DNA of 35,487 bases from a virus (Duplodnaviria; Heunggongvirae; Uroviricota; Caudoviricetes): IMG/VR virus record IMGVR_UViG_2663762908_000009; one strand, written 5' to 3'. The first letter of the stretch is position 1; each line of letters starts with the position of its first letter. Shown piece after piece: positions 28,488-35,487 of the stretch. A program made the translations under genes and the position numbers. The notes under the pieces were generated by a model. The model worked only from the letters and a program-made list of their open reading frames with translations, was not told the origin of the DNA and did not search any database.

Positions 28488-28678
28488 TATGAACGCCATC
28501 ACCATTTTCCCCTCGATTATAAAACTTGAGTTATTCAGTAGTCTCCCCTCTTGCAACTCACACCCAAAACTGCCTAACGAAAAGTTATTAATTTTCAATC
28601 ATATTGCTATCAGTATTTACATTTTTTCGCTGTGCTAGAAAGGGCGCATTTATGTTAGCTCGTTCAGGGAAGGTAAGC

Positions 28679-34033
<5,355 letters not shown>

Positions 34034-34069: not shown

Positions 34070-34378
34070 TATATTGAACGGGCGCGGCGGCAGGTTATCC
34101 ACCACCACCGAGGCCAGATACTGCGAGGTGGTTTTGCCCTTAATGGTGATGTCTTTTTCCGTCACCCAGCCACCATTACGCTGTATCTGAACCAGCAGGC
34201 GGACTTCCGACGGATTCCGGTCCCCCTTTGAGGTGGTTTCCACCAGTGCCTGTACACCGAAGGTAAAGCGCAGACGGTCGATGTTTGCAGACGTAATGGC
34301 CCGGGTGATCGGCGTGTCATATTTCACTTCCGTACCCAGCACCGTCTCGGAGCCGGAGGATTCAAATCCCTCCGGCGG
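34070..34378 (-). CDS. J: lambda-like host specificity protein J, N-terminal-region fragment
   Basis: LGTEVKYDTPITRAITSANIDRLRFTFGVQALVETTSKGDRNPSEVRLLVQIQRNGGWVTEKDITIKGKTTSQYLASVVVDNLPPRPFNI. Confidence 0.8.
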
Positions 34379-34389
34379 NNNNNNNNNNG

Positions 34390-34707
34390 ATTGATATCAC
34401 CGGCGACAGTGCGACGGTGGATAACAAGGGCACCATGACCGTCACCGATCCGGAGTCCATGGGTATCCAGATCGACGGTGACAAGGCGGTTGTTAACAAC
34501 GAAGACGACAGTTCCATCACCAACGGCGGCACCGGCACCCAGATTAATGGTGATGACGCCACGGCAAACAACAACGGCAAAACCACCGTTGACGGCAAGG
34601 ATTCCACCGGTACGGAAATCAACGGTAATAACGGAAAAGTTATTCAGGACGGCGATCTGGATGTCAGCGGCGGCGGTCACGGGATTGATATCACCGGCGA
34701 CAGCGCG
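34390..34707 (+). CDS. repeat region of a large surface adhesin (autotransporter-passenger-like), internal fragment
   Basis: IDITGDSATVDNKGTMTVTDPESMGIQIDGDKAVVNNEDDSSITNGGTGTQINGDD...GIDITGDSA; the same GATTGATATCACCGGCGACAG sequence at both contig edges. Confidence 0.45.
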
Positions 34708-34718
34708 NNNNNNNNNNA

Positions 34719-34790
34719 TTCCAGGCTTGTCTGTAATCGGGGATAACAGAAATATGTTCCATCAATTTTTTAAGTTCCATTTTGTTCTCC
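34719..34790 (-). CDS. ISAs1-family (H-repeat, YhhI-like) transposase, first 24 codons
   Basis: MELKKLMEHISVIPDYRQAWN matches the YhhI/H-rpt N-terminus. Confidence 0.6.
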
Positions 34791-34923
34791 TTAATTATGT
34801 AAGGAGTATTTGATCCAAGGCAAGATTACGAAAGCCCGCTCCCCGCAAGGACTGACGCCAGATAGTTTCTGTCCATGGCTGCTTTTCGCATCTTACGTCT
34901 TAACCCTGCCTTNNNNNNNNNNA

Positions 34924-35487
34924 CTGAAGGGGGGATGGAACCTGTATGGATATCAATTGAATCCGATATCAGACATCGACCCCCTGGGTTTATCTATGTG
35001 GGAGGATGCAAAATCGGGGGCATGTACTAATGGTCTTTGCGGCACACTATCCGCTATGATAGGTCCAGATAAATTTGATTCTATAGATAGCACCGCATAT
35101 GACGCCTTAAATAAAATAAATAGCCAATCTATTTGCGAAGATAAAGAGTTCGCTGGTTTAATATGTAAGGATAATAGTGGCAGATATTTCTCAACAGCAC
35201 CTAACCGAGGAGAAAGAAAAGGATCATATCCATTCAATAGCCCTTGCCCTAATGGTACTGAGAAAGTATCAGCTTATCATACTCATGGTGCAGATAGTCA
35301 TGGAGAATATTGGGACGAAATATTTTCAGGTAAAGATGAGAAAATAGTTAAAAGTAAAGATAACAATATCAAGTCATTTTATTTAGGTACGCCCAGTGGT
35401 AATTTTAAAGCAATAGATAACCACGGGAAGGAAATAACAAACAGAAAAGGATTACCTAATGTCTGCAGAGTTCATGGTAATATGTAA
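34924..35487 (+). CDS. Rhs/YD-repeat protein C-terminal tip: end of the Rhs core (DPLGL boundary) plus a ~164-aa unassigned C-terminal toxin domain
   Basis: GGWNLYGYQLNPISDIDPLGL boundary motif; AT-rich tail with C-x5-C, AYHTHGADSHGEYWDEIFSGKD; stop is the last codon of the window. Confidence 0.6.
   Translation: MKGGWNLYGYQLNPISDIDPLGLSMWEDAKSGACTNGLCGTLSAMIGPDKFDSIDSTAYDALNKINSQSICEDKEFAGLICKDNSGRYFSTAPNRGERKGSYPFNSPCPNGTEKVSAYHTHGADSHGEYWDEIFSGKDEKIVKSKDNNIKSFYLGTPSGNFKAIDNHGKEITNRKGLPNVCRVHGNM

Follow-up and report, generated by a model that had tools for sequence, protein, structure and literature searches.

The C-terminal tip of Escherichia coli RhsB, a DUF4329/Tox-JAB-2 domain with a predicted JAMM zinc site and an immunity partner with a signal-like N-terminus

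Positions 34924-35487 of the DNA analysed here hold the 3' end of rhsB, a chromosomal gene for an Rhs polymorphic toxin, with a sequence identical to that of Escherichia coli K-12. The C-terminal tip that it encodes is very likely a JAMM-type zinc hydrolase, as predicted from its family, motif and fold. We explain the region as the K-12 rhsB tip, a zinc hydrolase that would act in the periplasm and would be matched by an exported immunity protein, and this whole reading is held with middling confidence. The tip, its membership in DUF4329/Tox-JAB-2 and its immunity gene are certainly an already-known feature, which is the textbook rhsB of K-12.

Identity of the last contig and the rhsB locus

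The window, which is the whole stretch of 35,487 bases, consisted of 29 short contigs (115-6435 bases) with 10-N runs between them. It looked like the repeat-rich remainder of a draft E. coli assembly. Since the contigs were apparent draft leftovers, the order of the pieces carried no positional information. In the case of the last contig, the N-run to the left of 34923 meant that adjacency to anything on that side was not established. The coordinates of the features are given in Table 1.

Table 1. Positions of the rhsB, yhhH and H-rpt features in the window
Feature	Position	Strand	Remarks
Tandem H-rpt/ISAs1 junction contig	34718-34912	-	two ORF copies
First H-rpt/ISAs1 ORF, last 28 codons (...AGSGLS, stop)	stop 34828-34826	-	
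Second H-rpt copy, first 21 codons	ATG 34780	-	45-nt spacer between copies
AAGGAG ribosome-binding site of second H-rpt copy	34787-34792	-	
Last contig	34923-35487		565 bases; begins after N-run
Last 23 RhsB core codons, LKGGWNLYGYQLNPISDIDPLGL	34924..34992	+	frame from 34924
NLYGYQLNPISDIDPLGL	34939-34992	+	
NPISDIDPLGL	34960-34992	+	matches the Rhs core-end motif
DPLGL	34978-34992	+	inside core-end motif PxxxxDPxGL
Complete RhsB C-terminal tip	34993..35487	+	164 codons 34993-35484; TAA 35485-35487, the last window bases
DUF4329/Tox-JAB-2 domain (PF14220)	35089..35445	+	profile 2-114 of 116
E52 codon, predicted JAMM catalytic glutamate	35146..35148	+	162/162 representatives; invariant in 40-sequence alignment
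C58 codon	35164..35166	+	C85 codon at 35245-35247
H96-T97-H98, predicted H[ST]H zinc-ligand motif	35278..35286	+	H96 161/162; H98 161/162
S112-G-K-D115, SxxD part of JAMM motif	35326..35337	+	S112 159/162; D115 162/162
yhhH start, first 29 nt (MSAEFMVIC...)	35459..35487	+	other frame; overlaps rhsB end

At 565 of 565 nucleotides, the last contig matched the 3'-terminal part of rhsB in E. coli K-12 MG1655; on translation, its tip was exactly the C-terminal end of the 1411-residue K-12 RhsB. The contig shared the core end, the 164-residue tip and the 29-nt yhhH overlap with K-12 RhsB (b3482) and YhhH (b3483), with zero sequence difference. The window copy is an isolated assembly fragment, whereas the K-12 copy is a chromosomal locus. 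The rhsB locus of AP018808 was also 100% identical to the contig. The original prediction had placed an Rhs core-to-tip junction here, followed by a toxin domain, and both the RHS_core alignment and the PF14220 match bore this out. The 23-residue core end aligned to positions 1239-1261 of 1261 in NCBIfam RHS_core and to the C-terminus of the solved T6SS Rhs cores 8qjc, 8qjd and 8qjb. A sequence search of the PDB gave matches to this core end only and none to the tip. The YD-repeat shell would lie upstream of the contig start, and the identical K-12 gene showed 10 RHS_repeat matches together with RHS and DUF6531 domains. The tip had been described as an AT-rich domain of about 164 residues. It was exactly 164 codons long, with a GC content of 36.6% compared to 48.8% for the whole window. 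A 225-residue ORF at 34810-35487 was rejected as an artefact, because it reads through the N-run; the real gene reaches further 5' into an Rhs core outside the contig. Truncation of the tip at the window edge was ruled out by the stop codon.

Of 5426 complete E. coli genomes, 2737 contained the last contig by Megablast. Every match was chromosomal, and 2646 of the genomes reached an identity of at least 99%. The matches were annotated as rhsB followed by yhhH, and the locus order in K-12 and AP018808 was nikR-rhsB-yhhH-(yrhC)-yhhI-yhhJ. No vgrG or eagR adjoined rhsB in these two loci, which corresponds to the 'neighbourless' Rhs class described in PMC6730261. The N-terminus of K-12 RhsB (MSGKPAARQGD) contains the literal letters PAAR; Pfam gave no PAAR domain in K-12 RhsB at E <= 1e-3. 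The O157 RhsB has been counted among the PAAR-Rhs proteins (PMC7216683). In some strains, an IS1 lay inside the region matched by the contig and separated rhsB from what is annotated as a distinct 'DUF4329 domain-containing protein'. Chimeric ORFs of IS1 and DUF4329 have also been recorded.

The H-rpt fragment in the preceding contig had been named as the classic companion of Rhs elements, with its adjacency unproven, and a link to this element did not hold. The H-rpt contig was 100% identical to the two-copy ISAs1 junction that ATCC 8739 and other genomes carry between yafV and a remnant of rhsG; its identity to yhhI at the rhsB locus was only 97%. Matches over at least 80% of its length were found in about 1672 genomes, and identity of at least 99% in 239 records. 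Judged by these matches, the fragment is an Rhs-associated element from a different locus, and it was ruled out as a marker of the rhsB element by the exact match elsewhere. A transposase start had been proposed at 34719..34790. Such a start is present, but its ATG is at 34780, and 34790 falls inside the ribosome-binding site.

Further fragments of the window were noted. The ORF at 28604-34033 (+) encoded an inverse-autotransporter adhesin of 1809 residues with IAT_beta and 10 Big_1/Invasin_D3 repeats; it stopped 26 bases short of the contig end, possibly through a repeat-induced assembly break or a truncation. A fragment of a lambda-like tail tip protein J (34070-34342, -; FNIII-A_GpJ, E 7.9e-27) was prophage repeat debris. 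The fragment at 34389-34707 (+) was a Gly/Asp/Asn/Thr-rich repeat, GDSATVDNKGTMTV...ITGDSA, whose ends repeat one another. It resembled an autotransporter passenger repeat and had no Pfam match.

Family, motif and fold of the tip

The tip matched Pfam PF14220 with an E value of 5.7e-40 and 136.3 bits, against a gathering cut-off of 28.6. Zhang et al. 2012 named the clade Tox-JAB-2, gave E, H[ST]H, S and D as its conserved positions and assigned Imm-NTF2-2 to it as immunity partner (PMC3482391). In all of these positions, in its Rhs N-terminal context and in its immunity partner, the tip agreed with that clade. The RhsB tip of EHEC O157 EDL933 was already discussed in 2020 as a DUF4329 domain structurally like the proteasome lid (PMC7216683). 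The tip of K-12 RhsD was a paralog, and its partner was YbbC. Phage tblastn, PHROGs and PADLOC returned nothing for the tip, and phage and giant-virus members have been reported for its family.

Conservation was counted over 162 non-redundant domain matches among the proteins from the searches run. The word-index protein search returned almost exclusively E. coli copies, and the profile search was needed for diversity. At E <= 0.001, phmmer matched 757 representatives of 50%-identity clusters. E52, H96, T97, H98, G99, S112, D115 and L131 were invariant in a 40-sequence alignment made after the profile search. Paired cysteines and an H-x-H...S-x-x-D arrangement reminiscent of metal-binding hydrolase sites had been pointed out in the tip. 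The six cysteines, H96-T-H98 and S112-G-K-D115 were indeed present, and H-x-H...S-x-x-D is the JAMM motif. All residues of the canonical E-x(n)-H-x-H-x(7)-S-x(2)-D were found in order, and the gap differed. From HxH to SxxD, the tip had 13 residues compared to 7 in the canonical JAMM motif, and the aligned homologs had approximately 11 to 27.

The AF2 model of the tip gave a pLDDT of 88.5 and a pTM of 0.83, and its best fold matches were isopeptidases. Foldseek returned weak matches only, to EMC8 and AMSH at E ~0.05, with no match in the PDB at E <= 0.001. The model showed a JAB/JAMM fold with an intact predicted E...H-T-H...S-x-x-D zinc site. The JAMM/MPN+ zinc isopeptidases (AfJAMM, PfJAMM1, Rpn11, AMSH, BRCC36 and CBASS Cap3) had 12-20% sequence identity to the tip and differed from it in their 7-residue HxH-SxxD gap. 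In addition, the groove for the Ubl tail is reported to be unconserved in the toxin clade (PMC3482391), and the DUF4329 domain, unlike these enzymes, is a toxin tip paired with an immunity protein.

The cysteines of the tip were C11 and C16 (CTNGLC), C48, C58, C85 and C156. Compared to the wider DUF4329 family, enterobacterial tips had an extra N-terminal CxxxxC extension and a C-terminal Cys. C58 and C85 occurred together in 62 of the 162 representatives, were both missing from 84 and were represented by a single one in 16. From this co-variation across the family, C58 and C85 may form a disulfide, and their co-occurrence would agree with a disulfide in an exported protein.

The immunity gene yhhH and its relatives

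The cognate immunity gene had been expected directly downstream and outside the window. The first part was confirmed. The downstream gene was yhhH, and the full YhhH, taken from identical loci, matched PF15631 (Imm-NTF2-2) with an E value of 2.5e-26. Extension into the identical loci thus revealed the small immunity ORF that had been anticipated. The second part needed correction, since the ATG of yhhH lies inside the window, at 35459, with a GGA-rich ribosome-binding site approximately 8 nt upstream.

Export was called from hydropathy and by reading the sequences, which is a heuristic and not SignalP. The N-terminus of YhhH had a basic KK and then R, a hydrophobic stretch, and TWA and QC on the two sides of the predicted cleavage site, which departs from the textbook form. 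YbbC started with MKYSSIFSMLSFFILFAC, in which the lipobox was LFAC, and a strong AAGGAG site lay ahead of the gene. All 11 enterobacterial homologs that kept their N-terminus, down to 49% identity, were signal-like despite their diverged sequence.

Genomes were also scanned with a distant DUF4329 profile made from a 4-sequence alignment. The scan gave 10 loci, from Acidobacteriota, Verrucomicrobia, Alpha- and Betaproteobacteria, Pseudolabrys, Xanthobacteraceae, Pelomonas and others. A small ORF lay directly 3' of the toxin in 8 of the 10 loci; its N-terminus was signal-like in 8 of 8, and it matched PF15631 in 7 of 8. In the case of metagenome loci, two PF15631 partners had signal-like N-termini, and a third partner, which did not match PF15631, had the lipobox LTSC. 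Other immunity proteins of the same loci (Imm11, SUKH-3 and unnamed ones) served as controls and showed no signal-like segments. Downstream proteins with no export signal were found at the DUF4329 loci of Tenacibaculum, Lysinibacillus (Gram-positive) and Xenorhabdus. In Pelomonas, the ORF following the toxin (L018 2430-2777) did not match PF15631 and had a clear signal peptide. The same ORF gave a sub-threshold match to PepSY, a peptidase-inhibitor domain (E 0.0044), which is a weak hint that the toxin may be a peptidase.

For the sister clade Tox-JAB-1, Zhang et al. described a lipoprotein as the immunity protein; they gave Imm-NTF2-2 as E. coli only and mentioned no signal peptide for it (PMC3482391). 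Compared to that 2012 account, the DUF4329/Imm-NTF2-2 pair was also found here in Acidobacteriota, Alphaproteobacteria and metagenomes, where the Imm-NTF2-2 partners were always signal-like. PADLOC gave nothing for YhhH, and PHROGs gave nothing for two homologs. The partners bearing a signal or lipobox, together with the co-variation of C58 and C85, suggest that the tip may have a periplasmic target.

Activity and site of action

The literature predicts another function for the same gene and family. The tip would be a cytoplasmic RNase or DNase, a RadC-like JAB nuclease neutralised by YhhH, and we consider this possible and rather unlikely. The nuclease prediction of Zhang et al. drew on RadC as an analogue and on the divergence of the toxin JAB clades, which have no tunnel for the Ubl tail (PMC3482391). 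Later papers (including PMC7216683), in their statements on the domain, label DUF4329 as an RNase and cite Ma et al. 2017, and an eLife paper counts Tox-JAB-2 as one of the characterised nuclease domains. The three loci with signal-less downstream proteins also favoured a nuclease. However, a review on Ma et al. 2017 confines the experiments, in its account of that work, to Rhs-CT1, CT3 and CT5 and calls CT5-8 'putative' RNases (PMC6730261). Our literature search, in which Ma et al. 2017 was judged through the descriptions of others, found no experiment on DUF4329 activity. The RNase or nuclease label of DUF4329 is a prediction only. The tip had been expected not to match a well-characterised Rhs-CT family. 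The family is named and catalogued, but its biochemical characterisation was not found in the literature. RadC also has the JAB fold, and its own nuclease function has only been proposed. It is a cytoplasmic protein and, unlike DUF4329, lacks an exported partner.

A cytoplasmic target needs no exported immunity, whereas Imm-NTF2-2 partners bore a signal-like or lipobox N-terminus in enterobacteria and in other phyla. The cytoplasmic immunity protein expected for a nuclease was not what YhhH, YbbC and the PF15631 partners looked like in our heuristic reading. The top fold matches, which were isopeptidases, also argued against a nuclease. T6SS amidases of the Tae/Tai and Tse1/Tsi1 type act in the periplasm; their immunity proteins carry a Sec or lipoprotein signal, and the toxins are cysteine-rich. 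The DUF4329 pair shares the signal-bearing immunity protein and the cysteine-rich toxin with them. The folds of those effectors are NlpC/P60, CHAP and others, which sets them apart from the JAB tip, and no description of a JAB-fold cell-wall toxin was found in the literature.

The tip could also be a relic of a decaying and undelivered rhsB, with its residues conserved through recent ancestry and not through function. The frameshift in rhsB of AP018808, the IS1 that divides rhsB in many genomes, the adjoining H-rpt genes, which are pseudogenes, and the K-12 locus with no secretion genes beside it were consistent with decay. We regard it as improbable. The tip was at least 99% identical in the 2646 genomes, its catalytic residues were conserved in 159-162 of 162 distant representatives, and the tip and the yhhH start were intact in the window. 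The toxin-immunity pairing persisted across phyla, which argues for selection on the family. The original view that the toxin domain lies outside every known Rhs-CT family agreed with the missing PDB sequence match and the lack of a significant Foldseek match, and it is almost certainly wrong, as the PF14220 match, the naming of the clade in 2012 (PMC3482391) and the identity to K-12 RhsB refute it.

For the exported-immunity, periplasm-acting zinc hydrolase that we prefer, the following mechanism is proposed. The tip would be kept within the Rhs shell and, by analogy with other Rhs proteins, cut after DPLGL by the protease of the core itself. It would then be delivered to neighbouring cells, via a type VI secretion system where the strain has one. 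K-12 is generally regarded as lacking such a system, and type VI delivery of the RhsB tip is inferred; the missing Pfam PAAR match and the absence of a vgrG or eagR neighbour speak against it. Once in the target cell, the tip would hydrolyse its substrate with the help of zinc, and sibling cells would be protected by YhhH. The periplasm is favoured as the site of action, since a nuclease working in the cytoplasm would hardly call for exported immunity. The 13-residue HxH-SxxD gap, the atypical cleavage site of YhhH, the signal-less downstream proteins at three loci and the frameshifted or IS1-interrupted rhsB of some strains count against this reading. With a JAMM fold and a periplasmic site, an envelope peptidase or amidase is the natural guess, and it might cut, for example, the peptide links of peptidoglycan or the link between Lpp and peptidoglycan. 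We propose tentatively, leaning slightly to the doubtful side, that the DUF4329 tips, including those of RhsB and RhsD, may not be nucleases but periplasmic zinc peptidases or amidases of the JAMM type, with an amide bond of the envelope as their substrate.

As a genome feature, the tip is minor: roughly one in two complete E. coli genomes carries it, and Pfam has listed it since 2012. Its remaining value is that of a widespread toxin family with a predicted activity only, which covers two Rhs toxins of K-12. On the comparative evidence, the exported immunity proteins across phyla contradict the RNase label of later papers. If the proposal is true, that label, copied across the literature, would be wrong, the DUF4329 tips would be the first JAB-fold cell-envelope toxins, and Imm-NTF2-2 would be a secreted or lipoprotein inhibitor.
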